A DNA stretch of 64,000 nucleotides from contig JBJHBZ010000013.1 in assembly GCA_050485765.1 (NCBI GenBank), forward strand, positions 5,272-69,271, given 5' to 3'. The notes below the pieces were generated by a model, which was not told where the DNA came from, did not search any database, and worked only from the letters and a program-made list of their open reading frames with translations. Positions 5,023-64,000 of this stretch are shown here, piece after piece (position 1 is the first letter of the stretch; each line of letters starts with the position of its first letter). The position numbers and the translations under genes are program-made. The DNA is from Phycisphaerales bacterium. Its GTDB lineage: Bacteria > Planctomycetota > Phycisphaerae > Phycisphaerales > UBA1924.

Positions 5023-5100
5023 TTCGATGACACGGGCCCCCGCGGGCGAGCCGCGTGCCCTGCCCGCCCCAACACGGGGCGGCCTGATGGAGACGGACGG

Positions 5101-6891
5101 ATGATCCTGAATCTGATCGTGATCGGCGCGGTGCTGGGCATCGGGTACGTGTGGGTGACCCGGGGCTTTTTCAGTGCGCTGCTGCACCTGATCTGCGTGA
5201 TCATCGGCGGCGCGATCGCGCTGGCGGTGTGGGAGCCGCTGGCGTACCTGATTGTCAACAACGTGCCCGAGAGCGGGTTCTTCACCTTCCTGGAAGGCGT
5301 CGCGTGGGGCGCGGCGTTGATCCTGCCGTTCGCGATCGCGACCGCGCTCCTGCGTCTGGCGGTCGACTCGGCGGTGCCGGCGAACGTCAAGGTGCCGGCG
5401 GTCGCCGATTACGTCGGGGGCGGGGTCTGCGGCGGGATCGCCGCGGTGCTGACCATGGGCATCGTCATCACCGGCGTCGGGCACACGCGGGTCGCGTCGG
5501 AGTTCTTCGGCTACAAGCCGCTGAGCACCACCGTCAGCGGGCTCACGCAGGAATCCAGCCTCTGGCTCCCGGTCGACCGGATCACCGGGGCCGTCTACGG
5601 GCACCTCTCGAGCGGCGTGTTCAGCACGACGCAGCCGCTGAGCACCTGGCACCCGGACTTCGCGACCGCGCCGGCCGCGATGCGCATGAGCCTGGGCGAC
5701 GGGAAAGGCCGCAACGTCATGCCGCCGAGCGCGGTCCGCGTCATCTCGTCGTGGACGCTCGGCAAGGACGACGCGCAGACGACCCTCCGCGACCTGATGC
5801 GGGATGAGTGGAGCCCCGCGACGCAGAACCCGCAGCGCGTCAACGGCGAGCCCTTCAACCCGCAGAGTCATATCGTGGGGTACATGCTCCGCATCGGGCC
5901 GGAGGCGCGGGAGACCCGGGGCAACGTCGTCGTCAGCGAGGGGCAGATCCGCCTGGTGACGCGCAACCGGCGGACGGGCTCGAGCATGGCGGTGCACCCG
6001 ATCGCGGCCGTCAGCCCGGCGGCGGGCGAGACCAACCCGCCCGTCTACGGCCGCTGGCGGTTCGACGGGAACTTCCACCTGACGAGCGTGGGCGGGGCCG
6101 CCGAGACGCTGATGGGCTTCGAGTTCGTGGTGGAGCCGGGGTACGAGCCGATCGGTCTGACGATCAAGAACACGCGGCTCCCGCTGCGCGGGCTCGAGCC
6201 GCTGGCGTTTACGAGCTATCAGGAGCGTGACCGCGCGATCCGGACGGGGGCGTTGCTCGCGGGGGCCGGCGAGGCCGGCGAGTTCGACGCCTCCGAGGCG
6301 AACCGCGTCTCGACCGGGACGCCGGGCGCTGGTGAGCAGGGGAGCGGTGTGGTGGTCGGGCGGACCCTGCCGAACCGCCTGGTGATCCAGCGCGGGACGC
6401 ACCGGAGCCTGGAGATCGACGGGAACGAGATCATCCGCGGCGTGCAGGCGTTCAACCCGAACGAGTTCCAGCGTGCCGCCAGCATCCCGATGAACCTCCA
6501 GATCCGCCAGTTCCGCACCACGCCGGACACGACGCTGGTGCAGGTCGACGTGAGCCTGCGTTCGCGTCAGAGCCTGCTGGGCCAGGCGGCGGCCGCGGCC
6601 GAGCGCGTCGTCCCGCCCGAGCTGATCGACACCAACGGGAACCGGTACCAGGCGATCGGGTACGTCTACCGCGACCAGTCGATCGTGCGCCTGCGGTACA
6701 CGCCGGACCGCCCGATCCGCGGGCTGACCGAGCTCGAGGGCGACGGCGTCGGGCTCAGCCGCTCCGCGGCGGGCCAGGAGCTCACGCTGATCTTCCTGGT
6801 CAGCACCGGCGTCAACGTCGAGCGCTTCGTGATCGGCAACACCGTGATCGCCGAGTACGAGCCGCCGATCGACGCCAGCGGGCGACGCTGA
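5101..6891 (+). CDS. Integral membrane protein with a CvpA-like N-terminal multi-TM region and a large beta-rich C-terminal domain of unknown function
   Basis: N-terminus MILNLIVIGAVLGIGYVWVTRGFFSALLHLICVIIGGAIALAVWEPLAYLIV plus 2-3 more hydrophobic segments. GC3-rich codon usage. Last gene before a strong terminator. Confidence 0.6.
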   Translation: MILNLIVIGAVLGIGYVWVTRGFFSALLHLICVIIGGAIALAVWEPLAYLIVNNVPESGFFTFLEGVAWGAALILPFAIATALLRLAVDSAVPANVKVPAVADYVGGGVCGGIAAVLTMGIVITGVGHTRVASEFFGYKPLSTTVSGLTQESSLWLPVDRITGAVYGHLSSGVFSTTQPLSTWHPDFATAPAAMRMSLGDGKGRNVMPPSAVRVISSWTLGKDDAQTTLRDLMRDEWSPATQNPQRVNGEPFNPQSHIVGYMLRIGPEARETRGNVVVSEGQIRLVTRNRRTGSSMAVHPIAAVSPAAGETNPPVYGRWRFDGNFHLTSVGGAAETLMGFEFVVEPGYEPIGLTIKNTRLPLRGLEPLAFTSYQERDRAIRTGALLAGAGEAGEFDASEANRVSTGTPGAGEQGSGVVVGRTLPNRLVIQRGTHRSLEIDGNEIIRGVQAFNPNEFQRAASIPMNLQIRQFRTTPDTTLVQVDVSLRSRQSLLGQAAAAAERVVPPELIDTNGNRYQAIGYVYRDQSIVRLRYTPDRPIRGLTELEGDGVGLSRSAAGQELTLIFLVSTGVNVERFVIGNTVIAEYEPPIDASGRR

Positions 6892-12648: not shown

Positions 12649-12720
12649 TAGCCCGACAAGGATTCGAACCCTGACCCCCAGTACCAAAAACTGGTGTGCT
12701 AGCCATTACACTATCGGGCC
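12649..12720 (-). tRNA. tRNA-Gln (anticodon UUG)
   Basis: The reverse complement GGCCCGATAGTGTAATGGCTAGCACACCAGTTTTTGGTACTGGGGGTCAGGGTTCGAATCCTTGTCGGGCTA folds as a cloverleaf. The anticodon loop is TT-TTG-GT, the T-loop is GGTTCGAATCC, and no CCA is encoded. Confidence 0.85.
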
Positions 12721-15303: not shown

Positions 15304-15377
15304 AGGCCGCGGTGGGATTCGAACCCACGAATGACGGATTTGCAATCCGTTCCCTTAGTCCACTTGGGTACGCGGCC
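15304..15377 (-). tRNA. tRNA-Cys (anticodon GCA)
   Basis: The reverse complement GGCCGCGTACCCAAGTGGACTAAGGGAACGGATTGCAAATCCGTCATTCGTGGGTTCGAATCCCACCGCGGCCT has a 7-bp acceptor stem, anticodon loop TT-GCA-AA and discriminator U. Confidence 0.85.
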
Positions 15378-37073: not shown

Positions 37074-37080
37074 GTCAAAG

Positions 37081-37153
37081 TGGAGCGGAGGAGATTCGAA
37101 CTCCCGACCTCATCATTGCGAACGATGCGCTCTACCAACTGAGCTACCGCCCC
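37081..37153 (-). tRNA. tRNA-Ala (anticodon CGC)
   Basis: The reverse complement GGGGCGGTAGCTCAGTTGGTAGAGCGCATCGTTCGCAATGATGAGGTCGGGAGTTCGAATCTCCTCCGCTCCA carries the G3:U70 identity pair and anticodon loop TT-CGC-AA. Confidence 0.9.
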
Positions 37154-44866: not shown

Positions 44867-45997
44867 TTACCGCTTGTCGATGGGCGTGTAGGCGACCTCG
44901 TGCGGGCCGACGTACTTGGCAGCAGGGCGGAAGAGGCGGTTGTCTTCGAGCTGCTCGAGGATGTGCCCGCACCACCCGCCGATGCGGCTCATCGCGAACA
45001 TCGGCGTGAACAGGTCGAGCTTGAGCCCGATGCAGTGGTACGTGGTCGCGGAGTAGAAGTCGACGTTGGGGTAGATCCCCTTGCTCGCGACCTCGCGCTC
45101 CATGATCTCTTCGATGCGGTGGCTCTTGGCGTAGAGCTCGCTGTTGCCGGTGTCCTCAGCCAGCTGCTTGGCGAGCTTCTGGAGGTCAGTCGCGCGCGGG
45201 TCCTTCGCCTTATAGACGCGGTGCCCGAAGCCCATGATCTTGTCCTTGCGCTCGAGCTTGCCCATGACGTACGCCTCGGCCTCGTCGACCGAGCCGATCT
45301 CGTTGAGCATGACCATGACGCCCTCGTTGGCGCCGCCGTGGAGCGGTCCGCGGAGGCTGCCGATCGCGCCGGTCAGGGCCGAGTAGACGTCGCTGAGCGT
45401 GCTGATGATCACCTTGGCGGCGAAGGTCGAGTTGTTGAACCCATGGTCGGCGTGCAGGATCATGCAGATGTCGAACGCGCGGGCCATGGTCTCGGTCGGC
45501 TTCTCGCCGTTGAGCATGTAGAGGAAGTTCTGGGCGAAGCTCAGGCTGGTGTCGGGCTTGATGAAATCCAGCCCGCGCCGGTGCCGATCGAAGTAGGCGA
45601 TGAGCGTCGGGGCGTGCCCGAGGATCGTGACGCTCTTGTGCCGGAGCACGTCGAGCTCGATGTTGTTGGGGTCCTTGTCGTCGAGGGCGAGGGCGCTGAC
45701 AAGGGTGCGGAGGGCGTGCATCGGGTGGGCCTCTTTGGGGAGGGCCTTGATGCGATCGATCATGGTCTGGGGGAGGGTGTAGGCGGCCCGGAGCTCTTTG
45801 TTGAAGGCGTCGAGCTCGCTCCGGGTCGGGAGCCGCTTGTTCCAGAGGAGGAAGACGGTTTCCTCGAAGGTGCTCTTGCTGCTGAGCTCGCCGATGGGGA
45901 TGCCGACATACTCGAGCACGCCCTTCTGCCCGTCGATGAAGGACATCTCGGTTTCGGCGGCCACGACGCCCTCGAGACCCTTGCTGTAGTCGCTCAT
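44867..45997 (-). CDS. gltA: Citrate synthase (short, ~376 aa type)
   Basis: LHADHGFNNSTF, GPLHGGANE, GFGHRVYKAKDPRA, NVDFYS. Start at MSDYSKG (45997). Confidence 0.9.
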   Translation of the reverse strand: MSDYSKGLEGVVAAETEMSFIDGQKGVLEYVGIPIGELSSKSTFEETVFLLWNKRLPTRSELDAFNKELRAAYTLPQTMIDRIKALPKEAHPMHALRTLVSALALDDKDPNNIELDVLRHKSVTILGHAPTLIAYFDRHRRGLDFIKPDTSLSFAQNFLYMLNGEKPTETMARAFDICMILHADHGFNNSTFAAKVIISTLSDVYSALTGAIGSLRGPLHGGANEGVMVMLNEIGSVDEAEAYVMGKLERKDKIMGFGHRVYKAKDPRATDLQKLAKQLAEDTGNSELYAKSHRIEEIMEREVASKGIYPNVDFYSATTYHCIGLKLDLFTPMFAMSRIGGWCGHILEQLEDNRLFRPAAKYVGPHEVAYTPIDKR

Positions 45998-52654: not shown

Positions 52655-54385
52655 TCACTCCCCCTCGCCGCGTCCGATCGGGCGCATCAGCGGGAACAGG
52701 ATCACGTCGCGGATCGTGCGCTCATTCGTCAGCAGCATGACCAGGCGGTCGATCCCGAGCCCCAGCCCGCCGGCCGGGGGCATGCCGACCTTCAACGCCT
52801 CGATGAAGTCCTCGTCGAACGTGCGGAACGTATTTTCCTCGTCGTCCAGCCCCGCAAGCTGCTGCTTGAAACGCTCGGCCTGCACGTCCGGGTCGTTCAA
52901 CTCCGTGTACGCCGGCCCGATCTCCATTCCGGCGATAAACAGGTCCCAACGCTCCGCGAGCGGGATCGCGTCCCCCTCGGTCCCCTTCTTGCCCTTGGTC
53001 AGCGGGCTCAGCGCGGCCGGGTAGTCGGTCACAAACGTCGGACGCGCCGGGTCGATCGACGCCTCCGCGACCTCCTCGAACAGCTCGTTCACGATCAGGA
53101 TCGGGTCCAGCGCCTGCCCCTGCTCGTTCTTGGTCTTCAGCTTGCGCTTCTCGGCTTCGCTGCGCGCACGATCGAAGTCATCAAACCGGAACCCCAGCGC
53201 ACGATCGAACAGCTCGGCGTACGTCACACGCTCAAAAGCACGCCCGTAATCGATCTTCAGCTCCCCGAACGGGAGCACCAGCGTCTCCGGCAGCTCGTCC
53301 TCGTCGGCCGGCTCCAGCACCGCGCACCCCTTGCCCGCGCCCGTCGTGTCCAGGTCGCGATCCTCCAGGATCACCACCCGCGCCAGCTCGCGGATCAGCC
53401 CCTCGGTCAGCGACATCATCGACCCGTAATCCCCGAAAGCCTCGTACACCTCGACGACCGTGAACTCCGGGTTGTGCGTCTTGTCGAGCCCCTCGTTGCG
53501 GAAGTTCCGGTTCAGCTCGTACACCCGCGCCATCCCGCCCACCAGCAGGCGCTTCAGATACAGCTCCGGCGCGATCCGCATGAACAGCTCGAGCCCCAGC
53601 GCGTTCATCGTCGTCCGGAACGGGCGAGCCGCCGCCCCGCCCGCCAGCGTCTGCAGCATCGGCGTCTCGACCTCGAGGTACCCGCGTTCGTCCAGATACC
53701 TGCGAATGCGGCTCACGATCCGGCTCCGAAGCGTGAACGTCCGCATCGTCTCCGGGTTCGACCACAAGTCCACATACCGCTTCCGGTACCGAAGCTCCAG
53801 GTCCTGCAGCCCCGCCCGCTTCTCCGGCGGCGGCGTCAGGCACTTGCCACCCGGAGCCGCGCCCTCCGCCCAGATCGTCACCTCCCCCGCGCGCGTCTTC
53901 ATCAGCGGGCCATGCACCACCACCAGGTCGCCCAGGTCCAGCTTCTTCGCGAGCGCGAAGCCCCGCTCGTCGCAGTCCCGCTTGCTCAGCGCGACCTGCA
54001 CGTCGCCCGTGTGATCGCGGACGTTGAGCCAGACCAGCTTCCCGTTGTCCCGGTGCAGCACGACCCGCCCGCCGACCGCGACCCGCGGGCGACGATCCTC
54101 CACCGGCGGCAACGCTGAATCGTCCAGCGACGGGTCCGCCTTCTTCGCCGCCGAGCGGGCCGACTCCGACACCTGGTGCTGCTGGTCGGCCGACTCGTCG
54201 TACCGACGCCTGGCCTCGGCGCACGAGGTCAGGTCCGGCGTGCGCACGCCGTACGGATCGAAACCGAGCGCCCCCACCGCCTCGCGGTTCGCTCGGCGTT
54301 GCAGCTCCAGCTTGTGCATCTCACCCGACGAATCGACGGGCGAATCCACGGGCAAAGACGACGGTGCGGCTGTGTCAGAGTCCAT
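52655..54385 (-). CDS. lysS: Lysine--tRNA ligase (class II)
   Basis: RYRKRYVDLWSNPETMRTFTLRSRIVSRIRRYLDERGYLEVETPML, NRNFRNEG, GLGLGIDRLVMLL. Start at MDSDTA (54385) or the MHKLEL Met downstream. Confidence 0.9.
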   Translation of the reverse strand: MDSDTAAPSSLPVDSPVDSSGEMHKLELQRRANREAVGALGFDPYGVRTPDLTSCAEARRRYDESADQQHQVSESARSAAKKADPSLDDSALPPVEDRRPRVAVGGRVVLHRDNGKLVWLNVRDHTGDVQVALSKRDCDERGFALAKKLDLGDLVVVHGPLMKTRAGEVTIWAEGAAPGGKCLTPPPEKRAGLQDLELRYRKRYVDLWSNPETMRTFTLRSRIVSRIRRYLDERGYLEVETPMLQTLAGGAAARPFRTTMNALGLELFMRIAPELYLKRLLVGGMARVYELNRNFRNEGLDKTHNPEFTVVEVYEAFGDYGSMMSLTEGLIRELARVVILEDRDLDTTGAGKGCAVLEPADEDELPETLVLPFGELKIDYGRAFERVTYAELFDRALGFRFDDFDRARSEAEKRKLKTKNEQGQALDPILIVNELFEEVAEASIDPARPTFVTDYPAALSPLTKGKKGTEGDAIPLAERWDLFIAGMEIGPAYTELNDPDVQAERFKQQLAGLDDEENTFRTFDEDFIEALKVGMPPAGGLGLGIDRLVMLLTNERTIRDVILFPLMRPIGRGEGE

Positions 54386-54573
54386 AAGACCCGATCCTAC
54401 GAGCCCACCCCCGACAAAACGCCCCAGAACCACGCGCGAGCCAACCCACCCCCATTTTTTCAACACGGCACTTGCCCGACCCGATATGTTAGTGTATACT
54501 AGCTAGTGATTGCTAACTATCTGCGGGCGAGTGGCTCGCAGGCGAGGACACCCCGACCCGAGAGGAACGCGCC

Positions 54574-54843
54574 ATGCTGCTGATCAAGCTTCTGAACCGT
54601 GCGAGTTACGCCCTGTGCCTGTTGGCGGTGGTCTTTGCCGCCGCCGGAGCGATCTGGGGCGTCTGGAACCCCGGGGCCGAGGGGGTGGCGTGGCGGAGCG
54701 TTGCGACGGCTCTGATCATCTGCGCCGCCGCCGGGGCCGTCATCGCCATCAACGGCATCCTCGGCGTCCGCATGATCCGCGAGCACGAAATGACCGCCTG
54801 GCTCCCCCTTGGCAAGACCGAGCCCGACAAGCCCTGCCGCTGA
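54574..54843 (+). CDS. Small hypothetical membrane protein (2 TM, 89 aa)
   Basis: Two hydrophobic helices, GAGAGG upstream of the ATG, and a TTGCCC-N17-TATACT promoter-like element at 54472..54500. Confidence 0.45.
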   Translation: MLLIKLLNRASYALCLLAVVFAAAGAIWGVWNPGAEGVAWRSVATALIICAAAGAVIAINGILGVRMIREHEMTAWLPLGKTEPDKPCR

Positions 54844-55074: not shown

Positions 55075-55848
55075 ATGTCGGGCACGCAGGGGCACAAGGC
55101 GAGCAGGGCGACCGTCGCAGCCGCGTCGGCCGCCCTTGTCGTCCTGCTCAGCACCCCCGGGTGCGCCGCCCCTCCGGGCTCGCCCGCCCCCGGGCCCGCG
55201 CCGGCCCGCCCGGTCGCGATGCCGCACGTCACCTCCGGGGGCCCGACAGTGACGATCCGACGGGCCGAGACCCCGGACGATCGGGCGATGCTCCGCCCGC
55301 ACCAGCCGGCCCACGTCGCCGGCGCCGCCGCGATGGCGCTCGAGGAGGTCGTCTTCTACCAAGGCCGCCCGATCGCGGCGACGGTCCACCTCGGCGGGCC
55401 GACGCGCGACGTCGACGCGGTCATCCTCGCCCTGATGACCGACGAGTGCCACACGCGCTTCGCCCGCCTCTTCGTCGTCGGCTCGCGCGACCACTACCAG
55501 CTCGCCCGCCCCACCGGCCCGCGCCGTGAACGCCGAACCCCGCCGGAGCTCCGGCGCGAGTTGCAACGCCTGCACATCGATCAGCCCGGGCGCGACGCCG
55601 TCGAGGTTCTCGAAGCCCACGACCAGACCATCCTCGGGCGACGCTTCACCCGCGCCCGCCTGCGCCTGAACCTCTACCACTGGTACGAGACCACCAGCCT
55701 CGGGCCCGCGTGCTTCGAGCTCCAAGGGCACCCGCTCGACCCGAGCGACCCCGGCATGCCGCCCGTCCGACTCGTCGGCGAACGCCAGCTCTGCCCACCC
55801 GGCGGGCGCGCCACCGAGCAATGGGTCCGAGCGGCGGCGCGCCGCTGA
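55075..55848 (+). CDS. Putative lipoprotein (hypothetical)
   Basis: Lipobox-like VVLLSTPGC. No family recognised. Confidence 0.5.
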   Translation: MSGTQGHKASRATVAAASAALVVLLSTPGCAAPPGSPAPGPAPARPVAMPHVTSGGPTVTIRRAETPDDRAMLRPHQPAHVAGAAAMALEEVVFYQGRPIAATVHLGGPTRDVDAVILALMTDECHTRFARLFVVGSRDHYQLARPTGPRRERRTPPELRRELQRLHIDQPGRDAVEVLEAHDQTILGRRFTRARLRLNLYHWYETTSLGPACFELQGHPLDPSDPGMPPVRLVGERQLCPPGGRATEQWVRAAARR

Positions 55849-55946: not shown

Positions 55947-56147
55947 TTGACCCTGCGTCGATCGCCGAATAATCTCTGACCGATGCCCCACGTGCAGTCC
56001 ACCAAAGCCACGAAAGTCAAAGCCAAAGACGCCGCGAGCGTCCGGGCTGTGACTCTGGCTTTGGTGGTTTCGATCGCGTAGCACGCGACGACCCAACCGA
56101 CCGAACGCCACGCACTCCCGGACCCGTGTCCGGGGGTGTTTTCGTTT
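55947..56147 (+). promoter_or_regulatory. Candidate promoter plus ~170-nt structured 5' leader of the lysW operon, ending in an intrinsic terminator (attenuator or riboswitch-like)
   Basis: TTGACC (55947..55952) and ATAATC/AATAAT (about 55968..55974). Rod-like hairpin with perfect 12-bp arms CCACCAAAGCCA (55999..56010) / TGGCTTTGGTGG (56056..56067) and inner helices AGTCA/TGACT and GACGC/GCGTC. Confidence 0.35.
56117..56147 (+). terminator. Intrinsic terminator 44 nt upstream of the lysW start codon
   Basis: CCCGGAC-CCGT-GTCCGGG followed by GGTGTTTTCGTTT. Confidence 0.55.
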
Positions 56148-56190
56148 GCACCCGTTCTCTTTTCCGCGACCCGCAACCAAGGAGCCCGCC

Positions 56191-56379
56191 ATGAGCGCGA
56201 CCGAGACTCAGATCCAGGCCATCTGCCCCGAGTGCGACGCCGTCATCACCTTCGATCGTCCGCCGCTGAACGGGCAGGTCGTCCGCTGCCCGGACTGCGG
56301 GGCGGAGCTGGAGGTCGTCTCGATCAACCCGATCCGCCTCGAGCTCGCGCCGGAGGTGGAAGAGGACTGGGGCGAGTAA
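56191..56379 (+). CDS. lysW: Amino-group carrier protein LysW
   Basis: CPECDAVI...CPDCGAELEVVSINPIRLELAPEVEEDWGE: zinc ribbon plus the hallmark C-terminal EDWGE. SD context AAGGAGCCCGCCATG. Confidence 0.9.
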   Translation: MSATETQIQAICPECDAVITFDRPPLNGQVVRCPDCGAELEVVSINPIRLELAPEVEEDWGE

Positions 56380-56455
56380 AGCCCCGCGCCCCTCTTCACC
56401 CCCACGACCACCCCACGCCCGCCCGCCCCGTTTGCACCACCCACCGGAGCCCGCC

Positions 56456-57364
56456 ATGCGCATCGCGATGACCTTCACCCGCCTGCGAACCGAGGAACGC
56501 CTGCTCCTCGACGCGTTCGAATCGCTCGGCGTCCGCGTCGACCCGATCGACCTCCGACGCGTCGTCTTCGACCCCGCACGCCTCGGCGAGTGGGCGTCCT
56601 ACGACGCGGTGATCGATCGATCGGTCAGCCTCACCGCCGGGCTCACGGCGGTCCGCGTTCTCGAAGGGCTCGGCCTGCGCTGCATCAACGCCGCCGACGC
56701 GATCGAGACCTGTTCCGACAAGCTCCGCACCACGATCGCGCTGCTCCGCGCGGGCGTGCCGACGCCGGGCGTGCGCGTCGCGATCGGGCCGGAAGCCGGA
56801 CTAGAGGCGATCGAGGCGATCGGGTACCCCGCGGTGCTGAAGCCGACCATCGGCTCTTGGGGGCGGCTCGTGGCGCGTGTGAACGACCGCGACGCGAGCG
56901 AGGCCCTGCTGGAGCACCGCGACACGCTCGGCTCCGCCCAGCAGAGCGTCGTCTACGCCCAGGAGCACATCGACAAGCCGGGGCGCGACATCCGCGTCTT
57001 CGTCGTCGGCGGCGAGGCGATCGCCGCGATCGTGCGCACGAGCGCGCACTGGGTGACCAACACCGCCCGCGGCGCGACGGCCGCCGGGCTGGAGCTCACC
57101 GACGACATGCGCGAGCTCTGCACCCACGCCGTCGCGTCGACCGGGGCCGACGTCGCGGCCGTGGACGTCCTCGAATGCCCGGCCCGCGGCCCGCTCGTCA
57201 ACGAGATCAACCACTCCATGGAGTTCCGCAACAGCATCACCACCACCGGCGTCGACATCCCGGCCCACGTCGCGCGCCACGTCGTGCAGATTGCCGAAGA
57301 TGCCCGCAACAGCGGCGCCCGTGCGCACGAGAGCGTGCGCCCCGAAGCCGGGGTGAGCGCGTGA
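56456..57364 (+). CDS. lysX: ATP-grasp ligase LysX (alpha-aminoadipate--LysW ligase; RimK family)
   Basis: GYPAVLKPTIGSWGRLVARV, YAQEHIDKPGRDIRVFVVGGEAIAAIVRTSAHWVTNTARG, VNEINHSMEFRN. Same GGAGCCCGCCATG start context as lysW. Confidence 0.9.
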   Translation: MRIAMTFTRLRTEERLLLDAFESLGVRVDPIDLRRVVFDPARLGEWASYDAVIDRSVSLTAGLTAVRVLEGLGLRCINAADAIETCSDKLRTTIALLRAGVPTPGVRVAIGPEAGLEAIEAIGYPAVLKPTIGSWGRLVARVNDRDASEALLEHRDTLGSAQQSVVYAQEHIDKPGRDIRVFVVGGEAIAAIVRTSAHWVTNTARGATAAGLELTDDMRELCTHAVASTGADVAAVDVLECPARGPLVNEINHSMEFRNSITTTGVDIPAHVARHVVQIAEDARNSGARAHESVRPEAGVSA

Positions 57365-58389
57365 GCCTGCGCGTCTCGATCATCGGCGGGAGCGGGTACA
57401 CCGGCGGCGAATTGCTGCGCCTGCTGCTCGCCCACCCGGGAGCGGAGATCGCGCAGGTCACCTCCCGCCGTCTCGCGGGGGAGCCGGTCGCGCGCACGCA
57501 CCCGAACCTGCGCGGGCACGTGGCGCACACGTTCTGCACGCCGGAGGAGGTCGAAGCGTGCGACGTGCTGTTTCTGTGCATGCCGCACGGGCAGGCGGCG
57601 GCGCAGGTCGAGCGCTGGCGCTCGATCGCGCCGCGGATCATCGATCTTTCGGCCGACCTGCGCCTGCGTGATCCCGCGTCGTACGAGCGTTGGTACAACG
57701 AGCCCCACCCCGAGCCGCGTCTCCTCACCGAGGCGGTGTACGGGCTTGCCGAGATCTCGCGCGACCGCCTGCCCAGCGCGACGCTCATCTCTGGCGTCGG
57801 GTGCAACGCGACCGCGATGACCCTCGCCCTCCTCCCACTCGCCCGCGCGGGTCTGATCCGGCGCGTAATCGCGGACGTGAAGGTCGGCTCCTCGGAAGCC
57901 GGCGCTGAGCCCGGCCCGGGCTCGCATCACCCCGTCCGTGCGCGCGCCGCCCGCACCTACAGCCCCAGCGGGCATCGGCATATCGCCGAAGTTCTGCAGT
58001 CGCTCGGCGAGATCGATCTCGACGCGACCGTCACCGCGATCGACATGGTTCGCGGCGTGCTCTGCACCGCGCACGTCGAGCCGACCGAACCCGTGACGAG
58101 CAAGGATCTCTGGAAGCTCTACCGCGCCGCCTACGCCGAGGAGCCGTTCGTGCGCCTCGTCGCCGAGCGGAGCGGACCGAGCCGCTTCCCGGACCCGCGC
58201 ACGCTCATCGGCTCCAACCACGCCGACGTCGGCTTCGCGATCGACGAACGCTCCGGGCGCATCCTCGCGCTGTGCGCGATCGACAACCTCGTCAAAGGCG
58301 CGGCCGGCTCAGCCATCCAGGCGATGAACGTCGCGATGGGGCTCCCCGAAACCTCCGGGCTCACCTTCCCCGGCCTGCACCCCGCCTGA
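57361..58389 (+). CDS. lysY: LysW-aminoadipyl-phosphate reductase (ArgC family)
   Basis: VSIIGGSGYTGGELLRLL, GVGCNATA (active-site Cys). GTGA overlap with lysX. Confidence 0.85.
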   Translation: MSLRVSIIGGSGYTGGELLRLLLAHPGAEIAQVTSRRLAGEPVARTHPNLRGHVAHTFCTPEEVEACDVLFLCMPHGQAAAQVERWRSIAPRIIDLSADLRLRDPASYERWYNEPHPEPRLLTEAVYGLAEISRDRLPSATLISGVGCNATAMTLALLPLARAGLIRRVIADVKVGSSEAGAEPGPGSHHPVRARAARTYSPSGHRHIAEVLQSLGEIDLDATVTAIDMVRGVLCTAHVEPTEPVTSKDLWKLYRAAYAEEPFVRLVAERSGPSRFPDPRTLIGSNHADVGFAIDERSGRILALCAIDNLVKGAAGSAIQAMNVAMGLPETSGLTFPGLHPA

Positions 58390-58428
58390 ATTAACCCGGC
58401 CTGAACCCCGCAAACCCGCGAGAACACC

Positions 58429-59262
58429 ATGTCCACGATTGTCATCAAGATCGGCGGCGGCGAAGGGATCGATCCGGCGCAGGCCGCCCCGGAAATCGCC
58501 CAACTCGTCCGCGACGGACGCCGCGTCGTGCTCGTCCACGGCGGCTCACACGAGACAAACCAGCTCGCCGAAGCGCTCGCACATCCGACGCGAACGATCA
58601 CCAGCCCCAGCGGGCATACCTCGCGGCGCACCGACCGGCGCACGCTCGAGATCTTCAGCATGGCGTACTGCGGCCTGGTCAACACACGCGTCGTCGAGAG
58701 TCTTCGACGCGAAGGCGTTGACGCGATCGGGCTGAGCGGCATCGACGCCGGGCTCTGGATCGGCACACGCAAGAGCGCCATCCGCGCGATCGAGGAGGGG
58801 CGGACCGTGCTCATCCGCGACGATCTCTCGGGTAAGGTCGATCGGGTCAACGCCGAACTCCTGAACATGCTGCTGGATTCGGGACGCGTGCCGGTCCTCA
58901 CGCCGCCCGCGGTCACGCCCGACGGCATCGCGATCAATGTCGATGCGGATCGCGCCGCCGCCGCGACCGCCGGGGCATTGCAGGCGGATGAACTACTCCT
59001 GCTCTCCAACGTGCCCGGGCTCCTTCACGATCCGGCGGACCCGTCGTCACGGATCGCGAACGTCAATCCATCCACGCTCGAAGCCGCACGCTCGCACGCA
59101 CGCGGGCGGATGAAGAACAAGGTCCTCGCGGCCGAAGAAGCGCTCGGCGCGGGCGTGCCGCGCGTTGTGATCGCCAGCGCGACACGCGACCGCGCGATCG
59201 CGCACGCCAGGCTCGGCGACGGCACCATGTTCATCAACACGCCGAGCGAGGTGACCGCGTGA
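58429..59262 (+). CDS. lysZ: LysW-aminoadipate kinase (ArgB / amino-acid kinase family)
   Basis: IVIKIGGGEG...VVLVHGGSHETNQL and NVDADRAAAATAGAL. Confidence 0.85.
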   Translation: MSTIVIKIGGGEGIDPAQAAPEIAQLVRDGRRVVLVHGGSHETNQLAEALAHPTRTITSPSGHTSRRTDRRTLEIFSMAYCGLVNTRVVESLRREGVDAIGLSGIDAGLWIGTRKSAIRAIEEGRTVLIRDDLSGKVDRVNAELLNMLLDSGRVPVLTPPAVTPDGIAINVDADRAAAATAGALQADELLLLSNVPGLLHDPADPSSRIANVNPSTLEAARSHARGRMKNKVLAAEEALGAGVPRVVIASATRDRAIAHARLGDGTMFINTPSEVTA

Positions 59263-60371
59263 GCGCCGGCAGACTCGCCATGACGGACAGCGTTCGAATC
59301 GTGCACGACCTGGTCGCGACGCCGAGCGTTTCAGGCGATGAGCACGCCGCGGCGCGGGTATTCGCGAGCCACGCCGAACGCCTCGGCATGACGCCCGAGA
59401 TCGACCAAGCGGGCAACGCCCTCGCGCACCGCGGCGCCCCGAACGCCCGCACGCACATCGTCCTGCTCGGCCACATCGACACCGTACCCGGACGCATCCT
59501 CGTGCGGATCGAAGACCGCGCCCTGCACGGACGCGGAAGCGTCGACGCCAAGGGCCCGCTCGCAGCAATGCTCGTTGCGGCGTCAAACGCCGAACTGCCG
59601 GAGGGCGTCCGTCTCACGGTGGCCGCGGCCGTGGGCGAAGAGACCGCCGGCTCGCCCGGGGCTCGGCACCTCGTGCACCAGTACCGACCCGACGCGTGCA
59701 TCATCGGCGAGCCGAGCGGGTGGGACGGCGTCACGCTCGGCTACAAGGGACGTCTGCTCGTCACCGCCAGCACAACACGCGAGCACGCGCACTCCGGAGG
59801 CCCCCAGCCGAGCGCCTGCGATGAAATCCACGATTGGTGGAGCCGTGTGCTGGATCTTGCAAACTCGTTTAATACGCCACACGAACGCGCGTTCGACCAG
59901 TTGCAGACTTCCCTCCGCAGCATCGCGAGCGAGGAAGACGCCTTCCACCAGCACGTCCGCGCGCACGCCGGGTTCCGCCTCCCGCTCACGCTCACACCCG
60001 CGCAGCTCCGCCAGCAACTCGTATCGATCGCGAGCGAGCACACCCGCCTCGAGTTCGACGGCATGGAGCACGCGTTCGCCACCGATCGAAACGACCCGGT
60101 CGTACGCGCCCTCTCCGGCGCGATCCGCCAGCACGACGGGCGCCCGCGCCCCAAGCTCAAGACCGGCACGTCCGACATGAACGTCGTCGCCCCGCACTGG
60201 CGTTGCCCCATCGCCGCCTACGGACCAGGCGACAGCTCGCTCGACCACACACCGCACGAACACCTCGACCTCGACGAGTACGAGCGCGCGATCCGTGTGC
60301 TCCGGACCTCGCTCGAAACGCTCGCGAACGAACTCGCCACACGCTCAGACACGCCGCAGAACGCTGAATAA
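59259..60371 (+). CDS. lysK: LysW-lysine hydrolase (M20 / ArgE family)
   Basis: LVATPSVSGDE, LLGHIDTVPG, GRGSVDAKGP, GEETAG. GTGA overlap with lysZ; an alternative ATG lies at 59280. Confidence 0.8.
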   Translation: MSAGRLAMTDSVRIVHDLVATPSVSGDEHAAARVFASHAERLGMTPEIDQAGNALAHRGAPNARTHIVLLGHIDTVPGRILVRIEDRALHGRGSVDAKGPLAAMLVAASNAELPEGVRLTVAAAVGEETAGSPGARHLVHQYRPDACIIGEPSGWDGVTLGYKGRLLVTASTTREHAHSGGPQPSACDEIHDWWSRVLDLANSFNTPHERAFDQLQTSLRSIASEEDAFHQHVRAHAGFRLPLTLTPAQLRQQLVSIASEHTRLEFDGMEHAFATDRNDPVVRALSGAIRQHDGRPRPKLKTGTSDMNVVAPHWRCPIAAYGPGDSSLDHTPHEHLDLDEYERAIRVLRTSLETLANELATRSDTPQNAE

Positions 60372-60386
60372 CCGGAGTTTCCAGAC

Positions 60387-61241
60387 ATGCCCGCCACCGC
60401 AGCCACATCGCGACCGCCGCCCACACCACGCGCGACGCACGACGGCCCGAGCCTCGTGCGCGACGGCGAGATCCTCGCACGCGGCCTGCCCATCGGGCAC
60501 CTCATCGCCAACCAGTCTTACATCGACGCGATCTTCTTCCAGCTCCAGGCCCGCGAGCCGACGCCGCTCGAACGCACCATGATGGACGCCTACCTCGTCG
60601 CGCTCTGCGAGCACGGTGTGACCTCTCCGTCCACGCACGGCCCGCGTGTCACCGCCAGCGTGCGCGCGCCATTTGCCGCGACCGCGGTGAGCTTCATCGC
60701 CACCGCGATGGGCCCCTATCACTTCGGCGCACTCGAACGCACGATGCACACCCTCCTCGAGCTCGACGCGACGGATGAAGACATACCGAGCTACATCGAT
60801 CGAAAGGCCGCCGAAGGGGAGCGAGTCTGGGGCTTCGGGCACCGCTTCCACAAGAGCACGGGCGAGCCTGACCCGCAGCAGGCGGCGCAAGAAGACGCCG
60901 ACCCGCGCGTGCGCGCACTGATCCGCCTGGCCGACGAGCTCGGGTGGCCGGGGCGCCATCTGCAACGTGTCCGAGAGCTCGGGCGCGCACTCCACGAACG
61001 CAAGCGCATCCCGATCAACATCGACGGCGTCGCCGCCGGCCTGCTGCTGGACATGGGCTTCGAGCCCGAAACCGCCCTGCTCTTTGTCATCCTCGGCCGC
61101 CTGCCGAACATCGCCCGCTTGCACGCCGAGGAGCAGCACGAAACCACCAATCGCTTCACGGCTCTCGCCACACGCGAAGACCCCGGATTCAACCGCACCA
61201 TCGACCGCGACCAGCACCACACCCGCGAGACCCGCCCATGA
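60387..61241 (+). CDS. Citrate-synthase-fold protein, short form (citryl-CoA-lyase-like)
   Basis: LCEHGVTSPSTH, GFGHRFHKS (compare GFGHRVYK in gltA at 44867..45997) and INIDGVAAGLL (compare NVDFYS). At ~284 aa it lacks the N-terminal third of a full citrate synthase. Confidence 0.65.
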   Translation: MPATAATSRPPPTPRATHDGPSLVRDGEILARGLPIGHLIANQSYIDAIFFQLQAREPTPLERTMMDAYLVALCEHGVTSPSTHGPRVTASVRAPFAATAVSFIATAMGPYHFGALERTMHTLLELDATDEDIPSYIDRKAAEGERVWGFGHRFHKSTGEPDPQQAAQEDADPRVRALIRLADELGWPGRHLQRVRELGRALHERKRIPINIDGVAAGLLLDMGFEPETALLFVILGRLPNIARLHAEEQHETTNRFTALATREDPGFNRTIDRDQHHTRETRP

Positions 61242-61846
61242 ACACCGCCACCATCGCAACAGCAACGACTGACCAAGCGCACGCGATCGCCGAGCTTTTT
61301 CCAAGCATCCGTCAGATCCAGAGCCCCGCGCTGCGCGCACAAGTCGAAGCCGTCTGGCAGGAAGCCATAGCGACGGGCAACGCCGGGCGAGGATGGACGT
61401 CCGACGAACTCCGCGAGCTGCCGTTCACGCTCCTCGCCGGCGCGACGCCGATGCGCTTCATCGAGCATCTCAACAGCTGCGCCGAGCAGTGCCTTGCGAT
61501 CGCCGGCGTGCTCCGATCGACCTTCATCGAACGGGTGCCGATCGACGACGACACACTGCTCGCGGGCGCGCTGCTCGCCGACGTCGGTAAACTGTTCGAG
61601 TTCGAACAATGTCCGGCACGCGGGCTGATCCAGGGCGAATCGGGGCGTCTGCTGCGCCACCCGTTCACCGGGGCCGCGCTCTGCCGAAAGCACAATCTAC
61701 CCGATACCGTCACGCACATCGTCGCGGCCCACAGCCACGAGGGCGACCGCATCCAGCGCTCGATCGAGTGCATCATCTTCCATCACGCCGATTTCATCGA
61801 TTTCGATATCGCCAAGGCCATCGCCGTGGGAGACAACGCGCGATGA
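61238..61846 (+). CDS. HD-domain protein
   Basis: LLADVGK...HPFTGAALC...AAHSHEG...FHHADFIDF gives an H..HD..D metal-ligand pattern. ATGA overlaps on both sides. Confidence 0.6.
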   Translation: MNTATIATATTDQAHAIAELFPSIRQIQSPALRAQVEAVWQEAIATGNAGRGWTSDELRELPFTLLAGATPMRFIEHLNSCAEQCLAIAGVLRSTFIERVPIDDDTLLAGALLADVGKLFEFEQCPARGLIQGESGRLLRHPFTGAALCRKHNLPDTVTHIVAAHSHEGDRIQRSIECIIFHHADFIDFDIAKAIAVGDNAR

Positions 61847-63837
61847 GCACGCACGCAGACCATCGCACCACCATCGAAAAGATCGTGGCGCGTCACGCGG
61901 CCGGGTGGCACGAATCACGTCCGCCGCGAGCAGGCGATTACGTGCGCATCCGCCCGCGTCACGTGATGACCCACGACAACACCAGCGCGGTCATCCCGAA
62001 GTTTCACGCGCTCGCGGGGCGCGACGCCCAGGTCCACGACTCGACCCAGCCCGTCTTCGCGATGGACCACGACATCCAGAACCACACGCCTGAGAACCTC
62101 GGAAAATACGCCCGAATCCGCTCATTCGCCGAGCGCCATGCGATCCGCTATTACCCGCCCGGGCGAGGCATTGCGCATCAGGTCATGATCGAAGAAGGCT
62201 TCGTCACCCCGGGCGCGATGATCGTCGCCTCGGACTCGCACGCCAACATGTACGGCGCGATCGCCGCGCTCGGCACGCCCGTTGTCCGCACCGATGCCGC
62301 CGCGATCTGGGCGACCGGCGAAACATGGTGGCAGGTCCCGCCCCAGGTCCGCGTCACGCTCCGCGGTCGACTCCGGCCCGGCGTAACCGGCAAGGACGTC
62401 GTCCTCGCCCTGTGCGCACGCTTCAACAGCGGCGAAACCCGCAACGCCGCGATCGAGTTCACCGGCGACGGCGTCGCGCACCTCACCATCGCCGACCGGA
62501 TGACCATCGCGAACATGACCACCGAATGGGGCGGTCTCGCCGGCCTCTTCCCTTTTGACGATCGCTTGTACCGCTGGCTGCTCGAGCGGGCCCGAGCACT
62601 CGCGGCCCATCACACACCGGCGTACACCGCAGCCGACGTTCACCAGTGGTGGACGCAGCGCACCGAACTCCATTCCGATCCCGGCGCGTCCTTCGTCCGC
62701 GAGATCGTGCTGGATCTCGCCAGCGTGACGCCGCACGTCACCGGTCCGAACAGCGTGACCACGGCCCGCCCCGTCGCCGACCTCGAGTCGCAGCGCACCC
62801 GCATCGACAAGGCGTACCTGATGAGCTGCGTCAACGCACGCCTCCCCGATTTCGAAGCCGCGGCCGCCGTCTTCGGCGACAGCCGGCGCGTCGCCCCACA
62901 CGTCCGCTTCTACATCGCCGCCGCCTCGAGCGAGGTCCAGCAACAGGCCGAGCGAAGCGGCGCGTGGCGCACGCTCCTCCGGGCGGGCGCGATCCCGCTC
63001 TCGCCCGGGTGCGGCGCCTGCATCGGTCTCGGCGAGGGCACGCTGGAACCCGGCGAAGTCGGCATCAGCGCCACCAACCGAAACTTCGAAGGACGCATGG
63101 GAGCGCGCGACGCCGATTGCTACCTCGCCAGCCCCGCCGTCGTCGCAGAGTCCGCGATCCGCGGGCATATCGCCTCGCCGCACGCCATAACCAGCGAGAT
63201 CATCGCCAGTTCTCACGAAGCGCCCCGCACCCACACCCCACACGCACCGGCACCCTCACTGATCGACGGCTTCCCCGCCTCCATCGACGCCCGCGCGATC
63301 CTGCTCCCGCTCGACCATATCAATACCGACGCCATCTACGACCGCGACGTCACCTACCGCGACGACCTCACGCGAGCGCAGCAAGCCGCCTGCGCGATGC
63401 GGAACTACGACCCCGATTTTCAGCGCATCGCGCACGCCGGCGACGTCCTGATCGCCGGTCACAACTTCGGCGCGGGCTCCAGCCGCGAGCAGGCCGCCAC
63501 GGCACTCCAGGCGTTCGGCATCCGCGCCATCATCGCCGCGAGCCTGAACCAGACCTACCAGCGCAACGCCCTCAACAACGCCCTCATCACCATCGAGTGC
63601 GAGCCGCTTGTCGACCACCTCCGCGCCACCATCGCCCGCACAGCCGCGGCCCGCACCGTCTACGCCCCTCCCGTCCGCATCGACTTCGCCGCATCCACCA
63701 TCGAGTGCGACGCCCGAACGTTCACGTTTCAACCTCTGACCGAGCCCGCGCAGCGTCTGATCGTCGCCGGCGGGCTCGAGTCGCTCCTCGCACGCCGCTT
63801 CCGTCAAACGCCGGAAGCCGCCGGAACGCTCGCATGA
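61843..63837 (+). CDS. Fused large+small subunit aconitase-family dehydratase, predicted homoaconitase
   Basis: HVMTHDNTS, DHDIQN, ASDSHANMYGA, SCVNARLPD, PGCGACIGLG and ATNRNFEGRMG (Fe-S cysteines). Then the swivel domain GHNFGAGSSREQAA on the same polypeptide (664 aa). Confidence 0.8.
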   Translation: MSTHADHRTTIEKIVARHAAGWHESRPPRAGDYVRIRPRHVMTHDNTSAVIPKFHALAGRDAQVHDSTQPVFAMDHDIQNHTPENLGKYARIRSFAERHAIRYYPPGRGIAHQVMIEEGFVTPGAMIVASDSHANMYGAIAALGTPVVRTDAAAIWATGETWWQVPPQVRVTLRGRLRPGVTGKDVVLALCARFNSGETRNAAIEFTGDGVAHLTIADRMTIANMTTEWGGLAGLFPFDDRLYRWLLERARALAAHHTPAYTAADVHQWWTQRTELHSDPGASFVREIVLDLASVTPHVTGPNSVTTARPVADLESQRTRIDKAYLMSCVNARLPDFEAAAAVFGDSRRVAPHVRFYIAAASSEVQQQAERSGAWRTLLRAGAIPLSPGCGACIGLGEGTLEPGEVGISATNRNFEGRMGARDADCYLASPAVVAESAIRGHIASPHAITSEIIASSHEAPRTHTPHAPAPSLIDGFPASIDARAILLPLDHINTDAIYDRDVTYRDDLTRAQQAACAMRNYDPDFQRIAHAGDVLIAGHNFGAGSSREQAATALQAFGIRAIIAASLNQTYQRNALNNALITIECEPLVDHLRATIARTAAARTVYAPPVRIDFAASTIECDARTFTFQPLTEPAQRLIVAGGLESLLARRFRQTPEAAGTLA

Positions 63838-64000
63838 CCGCGCCCCGACCCCGCATCGCGTTGCTCCCGGGCGACGGCATCGGCCCCGAAGTCCTGACGC
63901 CCGCCCGGCGCGTGCTCGACGCCCTCGCTTTCGACGCCGAGTATGTCCACGCCGACATCGGCTGGCGTTTCTGGCAGACCGAGGGCGACGCGCTCCCCGT
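63834..64000 (+). CDS. Isocitrate/isopropylmalate dehydrogenase family enzyme, predicted homoisocitrate dehydrogenase (3'-truncated by the window end)
   Basis: RIALLPGDGIGPEV N-terminal signature. ATGA overlap with the upstream gene. Confidence 0.7.
   Translation, partial: MTAPRPRIALLPGDGIGPEVLTPARRVLDALAFDAEYVHADIGWRFWQTEGDALP

Follow-up and report, generated by a model that had tools for sequence, protein, structure and literature searches.

A LysW lysine operon of Phycisphaerales with a putative lysine attenuator and candidate citrate-synthase-family and MmgE/PrpD-family entry enzymes

We analyzed a 64,000-nucleotide (nt) stretch of DNA from a Phycisphaerales bacterium (the window; contig JBJHBZ010000013.1 of assembly GCA_050485765.1, positions 5,272 to 69,271 of the forward strand), the end of which carries an operon that appears to encode nearly the whole route from 2-oxoglutarate to lysine via alpha-aminoadipate and the amino-group carrier protein LysW. 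This operon consists of ten genes, nine of them in the window and the tenth, of the MmgE/PrpD family, just beyond it. It is preceded by a leader open reading frame (ORF) with clustered lysine codons and by a terminator-like hairpin, and one of its genes, encoding a citrate-synthase-like protein (CSL), is linked with lysine genes and with such leaders in related genomes. We narrowly favor the reading that CSL is the homocitrate-forming enzyme of this pathway and that the PrpD-like protein is its homocitrate dehydratase. With rather more doubt than confidence, we also propose that the lysine route starts with a homocitrate synthase of the citrate synthase/citryl-CoA lyase superfamily and proceeds via (S)-homocitrate and a dedicated PrpD-family dehydratase, copying the logic of the methylcitrate cycle, and that it may exist in an ATP-coupled form (ATP-citrate-lyase-like, working in the synthetic direction), always together with the HD-domain enzyme described below, in Pirellulales, Anaerolineae and many soil bacteria. 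To our knowledge, the aminoadipate pathway is considered always to start with a LeuA/NifV-type homocitrate synthase, which is also the entry to the homocitrate of coenzyme B and of the nitrogenase cofactor. A literature search found no description of a citrate-synthase-family homocitrate synthase, of a PrpD-type homocitrate dehydratase or of LysW in Phycisphaerae.

The ORF listing and a reading of the gene junctions showed that all nine window genes are present on the + strand: lysW (56191-56379, 62 amino acids (aa)), encoding the amino-group carrier protein; lysX (56456-57364), for the ATP-grasp ligase that joins aminoadipate to LysW; lysY (57361-58389), for the [LysW]-aminoadipyl-phosphate reductase; lysZ (58429-59262), for the [LysW]-aminoadipate kinase; lysK (59259-60371), for the [LysW]-lysine hydrolase; the CSL gene (60387-61241, 284 aa); a gene for an HD-domain protein (HD; 61238-61846, 202 aa); a gene for a fused homoaconitase (HAC; 61843-63837, 664 aa); and the 5' end of the gene for homoisocitrate dehydrogenase (HICDH; from 63834, running off the window at 64000). 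Five junctions are 4-nt start/stop overlaps, with GTGA at lysX/lysY and lysZ/lysK and ATGA at CSL/HD, HD/HAC and HAC/HICDH, supporting the proposal of the first-pass annotation that the genes are translationally coupled and that late and early lysine steps are fused into one operon. A second contig (L124), which is 98.75% identical to the window over 7616 bases and on which independent gene calls match the window gene lengths (302, 342, 277, 370, 284, 202 and 664 aa), continues past the window edge: there, HICDH is 404 aa long and its stop is overlapped by the start of a gene for a 485-aa MmgE/PrpD-family protein. The next gene of L124 lies on the opposite strand and marks the end of the operon, which thus has ten genes. 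The first-pass annotation had called the operon complete-looking; this proved incorrect in detail, since a tenth gene follows and since a LeuA-type homocitrate synthase, LysN and LysJ, which it had itself remarked as unseen, are also missing up to the operon end in L124. It had further bracketed the CSL and HD genes as unexplained inserts, when in fact they turned out to be the conserved and most unusual part of the operon. The nearest relatives of every gene were metagenome-assembled genomes (MAGs) labelled Phycisphaerales or Planctomycetota, in agreement with the planctomycete origin that had been proposed from the letters, and the G+C content of the window is 66-74%.

The family assignments argue for a lysine-type pathway, as the first-pass annotation had it. 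LysW carries the announced zinc ribbon (CPEC...CPDC) and C-terminal EDWGE, and it scored 78.9 bits with the NCBIfam equivalog model TIGR01206 (cut-off 53.2) and 69.8 with PF21344. Equivalog cut-offs were also passed by LysX (TIGR02144, 308 vs 275.6), LysZ (NF010659, 338 vs 223), LysK, of the M20 family (NF003367, 407 vs 363), and the homoaconitase, of the fungal LYS4 type (TIGR00139, 668 vs 530), and LysY, a member of the ArgC family, scored 360 with an argC-type reductase model (cut-off 234). These comparisons establish the predicted gene identities at the family level. The alternative that these genes belong to LysW-dependent synthesis of arginine/ornithine or to a carrier pathway for secondary metabolites, the aconitase- and isocitrate dehydrogenase (IDH)-family genes being leuCD and leuB orthologues, draws on the families that LysY and LysZ have in common with ArgC and ArgB, on the bifunctional nature of some archaeal systems and on the missing LysJ. 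It is nonetheless very improbable: the Lys-type equivalogs were passed when the bifunctional Lys/Glu models for the LysZ kinase gave scores under their cut-offs, the leuC, leuD and leuB models stayed far under theirs for the aconitase- and IDH-family genes of the operon, the lysine-codon leader is conserved and no tailoring genes are present. LysX was also closer to two solved LysX chains (265 and 236 bits) than to the chain 3vpb (163 bits), an ArgX of Sulfolobus. Neither ArgX-type affiliation nor leuCD/leuB orthology, which the first-pass annotation had named as the outcome that would overturn it, was thus found.

The CSL protein belongs to the citrate synthase/citryl-CoA lyase superfamily. 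Its Pfam Citrate_synt match covers profile positions 146-341 of 357, i.e., the C-terminal part only, and the two-domain architecture of about 370-430 aa is not seen. Across 18 sequences, H76, H152 and D213 were invariant; of the arginines matching those that bind the substrate carboxylates in citrate synthases, R174 and R238 were invariant too and R270 was conserved in at least 90%. We take the first three residues, by a mapping of our own, to be the equivalents of the citrate synthase triad H274/H320/D375 (pig numbering). The best solved relative was the citryl-CoA lyase (CCL) of Hydrogenobacter thermophilus (PDB 6hxp, E = 1.6e-35), which resembles CSL in size, in having no citrate synthase N-terminal half and in the His-His-Asp triad. 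Identity between the two is only 29-32%, however, and CSL proteins differ from it by two family-specific insertions, one of 13-18 residues before the DPR arginine and one of about 11 residues with an invariant NRF. Contrary to genes of the CCL/ATP-citrate lyase module, the window CSL gene has no adjacent CoA ligase gene and would be under lysine control. Considering that a normal full-length citrate synthase is encoded elsewhere in the window, 10 kb upstream of the operon (44867-45997, - strand, 376 aa, Pfam Citrate_synt 447 bits over positions 1-357, 26% identical to CSL), CSL is not the housekeeping citrate synthase. The family is compact, with about 109 clusters at 48% identity or more followed by a drop to 36% or less, and its named members were all from Phycisphaerales or Planctomycetota, so that it appears to be a Phycisphaerales-specific family. 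More distant citrate-synthase-like homologues (28-31% identity) were seen in Alphaproteobacteria, Marinobacter, Armatimonadota and an unclassified Pseudomonadota MAG (L029, L031, L034, L036-L038). Since a family III CoA-transferase gene directly precedes most of these, other short citrate synthase relatives may act as lyases on CoA esters.

The genomic context of CSL was compared across 27 Phycisphaerales genome loci; for two of them with lower G+C content (L018 and L021), where G+C-based gene calling fails, gene content was taken from tblastn only. In ten loci, lysK stands immediately 5' of the CSL gene; the series HD-HAC-HICDH stands immediately 3' of it in ten loci (L016 has HD upstream of CSL instead), and an MmgE/PrpD gene, with both Pfam domains confirmed, follows HICDH in ten. 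CSL thereby links the late and the early lysine blocks and stays with either when they are apart. In 12 loci, a lysine leader has CSL as its first downstream gene. Four of these (L003, L004, L005 and L026) have the leader followed by a CSL-HD-HAC-HICDH-PrpD operon without lysW, and in L015, L016, L019, L020, L021, L024, L025 and L027 the leader lies directly before CSL. Several of the leader-CSL loci look like single-gene units, for example L019 and L027, where the gene that follows points the other way. These associations suggest that CSL and HD are no passengers and that CSL is a lysine gene; a condensing enzyme that is separately attenuated by lysine is what one would expect of a committed first step.

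The leader itself lies upstream of position 56191, where the first-pass annotation began. It is an ORF of 32 codons on the + strand (MPHVQSTKATKVKAKDAASVRAVTLALVVSIA, 55983..56081), about 200 nt 5' of lysW, with four lysine codons within eight codons, all of them AAA, a codon that is rare in the window genes (46 of 406 lysine codons). Closer to lysW, about 40 nt before it, stands an intrinsic-terminator-like, G+C-rich hairpin of 12 pairs followed by the T-run TTTTCGTTT (56112-56139, or 56112..56149 with this run, + strand). The leader ORF, its motif (S/T)TKA..KAK..(S/G)VR and the hairpin were retained upstream of lysW in all ten related lysW loci compared and also in L128 and L129, and the public gene call of L128 even lists the leader as a 29-aa gene. 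In the hairpin of the ten aligned loci, the commonest pair was kept by nine or ten of them at most positions, with compensatory changes in 3 of the 12 pairs. In-frame clusters of at least three AAA codons occurred 39 times in 537 kb of loci, and 21 of these lay within 350 nt upstream of lysW or CSL, vs 0.48 expected.

Upstream of the hairpin, we identified GTCCGGG (56040..56046, + strand) as a candidate antiterminator, complementary to CCCGGAC in the 5' arm of the terminator (56117-56123), with which it may pair alternatively. This segment is identical in seven of the ten loci, and in L006 pairing is by wobble after a co-ordinated change. RNAalifold predicted a stem in which the last lysine codons pair with the segment GCGTCCGGGC, which contains GTCCGGG, and this stem is backed by compensatory changes. 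The layout fits a classical leader-peptide attenuator, in that the codon-cluster ORF and the terminator are there and the alternative pairing can be proposed, and it fits control of the operon by lysine: when lysine is scarce, ribosomes would stall on the four AAA codons, the antiterminator would be freed and the operon would be read through. As in the trp, his, leu and Thermus lys attenuators, the regulatory codons are clustered in a short ORF and form part of a conserved stem-loop, the terminator is G+C-rich and is followed by a T run, and another segment might base-pair with the 5' arm of the terminator. The Thermus lysine cluster is reportedly itself under a lysine-codon leader peptide. 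The present leader differs from all of these in that its regulatory codons are the rare AAA of a 70% G+C genome and in that its ATG comes 7-9 nt after a -10-like hexamer. A promoter-like TTGACC-N17-TAATCT (55947..55975, + strand) was read by eye just 5' of the leader ATG, where a promoter scan gave no call, and comparable TTGACA/TTGACT-N17-TAGTAT/TAGCAT pairs stand a few bases 5' of the leader ATG in L128 and L129. Since the putative -35/-10 pair ends only 7-9 nt before the ATG in the window, L128 and L129, the leader peptide may be translated from a leaderless or near-leaderless transcript.

No lysine riboswitch was detected in the window at the gathering score, around the leader at E<=1 or in ten loci of the wider module described below, and a literature search found no report of such lysine leaders in Planctomycetota. 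Searching for this leader could be a simple way to locate lysine-regulated genes in these genomes by sequence. A mini-ORF, MAKPLSLIWKPKK, that recurs upstream of HD in soil contigs was considered as a second lysine leader and rejected, since it falls within a small, conserved upstream gene and is read there in the wrong frame. On the other side of the leader, about 1.7 kb 5' of lysW, we recognized by eye a divergent gene resembling that of a class II lysyl-tRNA synthetase (52655-54466, - strand), separated from lysW by two small ORFs without Pfam match (54574-54843 and 55075-55848); this adjacency was not seen in related loci.

How a citrate-synthase-type enzyme could open the pathway, and why it would come with a PrpD-like protein, can be proposed from stereochemistry. 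By the Cahn-Ingold-Prelog rules, a synthase of the si type turns 2-oxoglutarate into (S)-homocitrate; LeuA-type enzymes produce (R)-homocitrate, the natural form. The arm on which aconitase-type enzymes act is the pro-R one, which is the wrong arm in (S)-homocitrate. As recounted in PMC3556520, (2S,3S)-methylcitrate is the product of a si-type synthase and requires PrpD, since the eliminations carried out by aconitases are anti only and these enzymes cannot bind it in citrate mode; by the same paper, LYS4-type and Thermus homoaconitases only convert homoaconitate to homoisocitrate, so that a second dehydratase is needed, which is aconitase in fungi and Thermus. In our model, CSL, which keeps the His-His-Asp residues, would condense acetyl-CoA and 2-oxoglutarate in place of a LeuA-type homocitrate synthase and, as its superfamily adds the acetyl group to the si face, would release (S)-homocitrate or its CoA ester. 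Aconitase-type enzymes would be unable to dehydrate this product on its acetyl-derived arm, and a PrpD-family enzyme would dehydrate the acyl-CoA-derived arm to give the achiral cis-homoaconitate, rejoining the known pathway. The LYS4-type homoaconitase would then hydrate cis-homoaconitate, HICDH would produce 2-oxoadipate, an aminotransferase encoded elsewhere would produce aminoadipate, and LysX, LysZ, LysY, a LysJ/ArgD-type transaminase encoded elsewhere and LysK would complete lysine on LysW. HD would act somewhere between the condensing enzyme and homoaconitase. Citrate-synthase-family and PrpD-family genes beside a homoaconitase gene are what an (S)-homocitrate model predicts, and from this we infer their roles. 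The PrpD-like protein has both the N and C MmgE/PrpD Pfam domains and scored 112-116 bits with the PrpD equivalog model (cut-off 950), and it is thus predicted to be a member of the superfamily and no PrpD orthologue.

A DRE-TIM homocitrate synthase of the LeuA/NifV type was found neither in the operon nor in a Pfam scan of the 20 larger window genes, and a motif screen of the whole window and related loci (1.38 Mb) gave no LeuA/homocitrate synthase signature, its three chance matches being without RDGxQ. There was also no LeuA-type gene near CSL in the 27 Phycisphaerales loci. LysJ and LysN were absent from the operon, and no aminotransferase was found among the same 20 genes. Three other Planctomycetota contexts (L128-L130) have a stand-alone five-gene lysW-X-Y-Z-K cluster, also without lysJ, and are uninformative on whether CSL displaced LeuA. 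As the chief alternative, it can be argued that the pathway is canonical, with a LeuA-type synthase, LysN and LysJ encoded elsewhere in the genome and with CSL, HD and the PrpD-like protein in accessory roles, such as the step from homocitrate to homoaconitate or a side reaction. Indeed, each genome is represented only in part by the window and the loci, the genes for early steps could be located anywhere when lysWXYZK stands alone, as it does in other Planctomycetota, and the need of Thermus and fungi for a second dehydratase would explain the PrpD-like protein without any new synthase. We consider this canonical arrangement rather unlikely, since CSL retains the full condensing triad, since its position as first gene after the lysine leader in 12 loci, several of them single-gene, is typical of a committed first step, since none of the 27 loci has a LeuA-type gene nearby and since an ordinary aconitase would be enough for (R)-homocitrate, leaving a PrpD-type enzyme superfluous.

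The HD protein is found well beyond Phycisphaerales. Its family had 2188 matches, with about 60% identity even in Pirellulales and Anaerolineae. PF01966 matches it weakly. In 15 diverse sequences, the "HD" dyad was an invariant Ala-Asp, giving a non-canonical H...AD motif in place of the canonical H...HD...D metal motif. Two cysteines and many other polar residues were invariant too, and the conserved blocks are EHLNSCxxQC, RHPF, HSHEGD and FHHADFxDFD. The predicted structure (predicted local distance difference test score, pLDDT, 88.5) has an HD-type fold with a best PDB TM-score of 0.56; searches against solved structures gave no sequence match to the protein and no close relative of the model. 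No function could be assigned from structure, cyanamide hydratase being found only among the weak matches. A thioesterase role seems less plausible because HD occurs beside complete CoA-ligase units; a dehydratase, an acyl-phosphate hydrolase or a cluster-repair role are other candidates, none of them with support.

These CoA-ligase units belong to a wider module with the order [ATP-grasp CcsA/AclB-like]-[CoA-ligase alpha and CCL-like, fused or split]-HD-fused homoaconitase-HICDH, in some cases with a PrpD-like gene after HICDH. It was found in Pirellulales (L040/L041), Anaerolineae (L039), L042/L043 and soil metagenome contigs (L044-L123). Counted over these 80 metagenome loci, with informative subsets for each gene, homoaconitase adjoins HD downstream in 51 of 60 loci, a CCL-type gene precedes HD in 32 of 62 and HICDH follows in 21 of 31. 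The homoaconitases of the module in other phyla scored 717 and 747 bits with TIGR00139, above the window protein, and its CCL-like proteins pass two PRK06224 subfamily cut-offs and are 42-46% identical to the Hydrogenobacter CCL. No lysWXYZK genes were found within 10 kb of the module. It showed no lysine leader and, in the ten loci searched, no lysine riboswitch, and the link of this module with lysine would rest on the orthology of its genes with those of Phycisphaerales. A GNAT acetyltransferase gene sits between the CCL-like gene and HD in L042/L043, L048, L050, L066 and L125. In L013, from a Phycisphaeraceae MAG that also has lysXYZK, a saccharopine-dehydrogenase-family gene (4185-5393, - strand) adjoins homoaconitase, which could indicate a lysine-related step of the fungal or another type. 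We also considered CSL as a simple replacement of the ATP-citrate-lyase-like unit, an idea that was dropped because the two coexist; CSL is a Phycisphaerales-specific addition and not a plain substitute for that unit.

Several points weigh against assigning homocitrate formation to CSL and homocitrate dehydration to the PrpD-like protein. A LeuA-type homocitrate synthase may lie elsewhere in the genome, the loci being partial genomes, and CSL would then serve lysine in some other way. The N-terminal half of citrate synthases is missing from CSL, which does not pass the citryl-CoA lyase models either (PRK06224, best score 127.9 vs a cut-off of 245); its substrate, the direction of its reaction (lyase or synthase) and the hydrolysis of a thioester are not fixed by sequence. 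At least three genomes of Phycisphaerae (L013, L016 and CP060234.1, the last one complete) have both CSL and an ATP-citrate-lyase-like unit with HD, and of the 19 metagenome loci whose sequence extends far enough, only 4 have the PrpD-like gene downstream. For the stereochemical argument to hold, 2-oxoglutarate must bind in the same way as oxaloacetate. The antiterminator complement is of only 7 base pairs, uneven between loci and weaker in L028. For the dehydrogenase, of which the full-length protein of L124 scored 239 bits with the Thermus HICDH, 223 with NAD-isocitrate dehydrogenases and at most 190 with isopropylmalate dehydrogenases, the best matches are HICDH, yet under the equivalog cut-offs, so that its class is given at the family level only and the score alone cannot separate HICDH from NAD-isocitrate dehydrogenase. 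Finally, the functions proposed here are based on sequence and genomic context.

A further explanation is that CSL and the ATP-citrate-lyase-like units, together with the aconitase- and IDH-family genes, form a precursor branch from citrate to 2-oxoglutarate, or that the dehydratase and the dehydrogenase serve both series. Thermus HICDH also uses isocitrate, and the protein of L124 scores only slightly higher with HICDH than with NAD-isocitrate dehydrogenases. The identity of the wider-module CCL-like proteins with the Hydrogenobacter enzyme and their passing of CCL subfamily cut-offs fit this explanation, as does L016, where the lysine leader lies between HD and CSL and leaves HD and the ATP-citrate-lyase-like genes outside its reach. 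A citrate branch is nevertheless decidedly unlikely: a full-length citrate synthase is already encoded in the window, the homoaconitase equivalog cut-off was passed by the fused dehydratase of every lineage tested, it would be strange for a citrate synthase to be attenuated specifically by lysine, and the formation of 2-oxoadipate would be left without any candidate genes.

If CSL and the PrpD-like protein do act as proposed, this would be a clear non-orthologous replacement at a committed step and a new way to start the pathway. It would also change how lysine prototrophy is scored in MAGs of Planctomycetota and of other soil and marine phyla, supply a specific candidate for the dehydration of homocitrate, a step that has long been without an assigned enzyme, and place a widespread HD-domain family in a context linked to function. 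Elsewhere in the window are three tRNA genes unrelated to the operon, all on the - strand: Gln-TTG (12649-12720), Cys-GCA (15304-15377) and Ala-CGC (37080-37153).

Compared with known systems, the operon is closest in its late part to the LysW pathway of Thermus thermophilus (also of Sulfolobus and Thermococcus), with which it has in common the LysW zinc ribbon and EDWGE end, LysX, LysZ, LysY and LysK, a homoaconitase and HICDH. It differs from the Thermus system in lacking a LeuA-type homocitrate synthase, LysJ and LysN, in its homoaconitase, which is of the LYS4 type, fused into one protein and not split into two subunits, in its three extra conserved genes (CSL, HD and PrpD-like) and in its host, a mesophilic-looking member of the Phycisphaerales. 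With the fungal aminoadipate pathway, it shares the fused LYS4-type homoaconitase (TIGR00139) and the expectation of a second enzyme for homocitrate dehydration (PMC3556520). That second enzyme would here be of the MmgE/PrpD family and not an aconitase, and the late steps proceed via LysW and not through aminoadipate reductase and saccharopine. The front end of the methylcitrate cycle (PrpC, PrpD and aconitase) draws on the same three superfamilies in the same logical order of condensation, dehydration and rehydration. Unlike in that cycle, the proposed substrates would be acetyl-CoA and 2-oxoglutarate instead of propionyl-CoA and oxaloacetate, the condensing enzyme is truncated and the proposed route would end in a decarboxylating dehydrogenase rather than a lyase.

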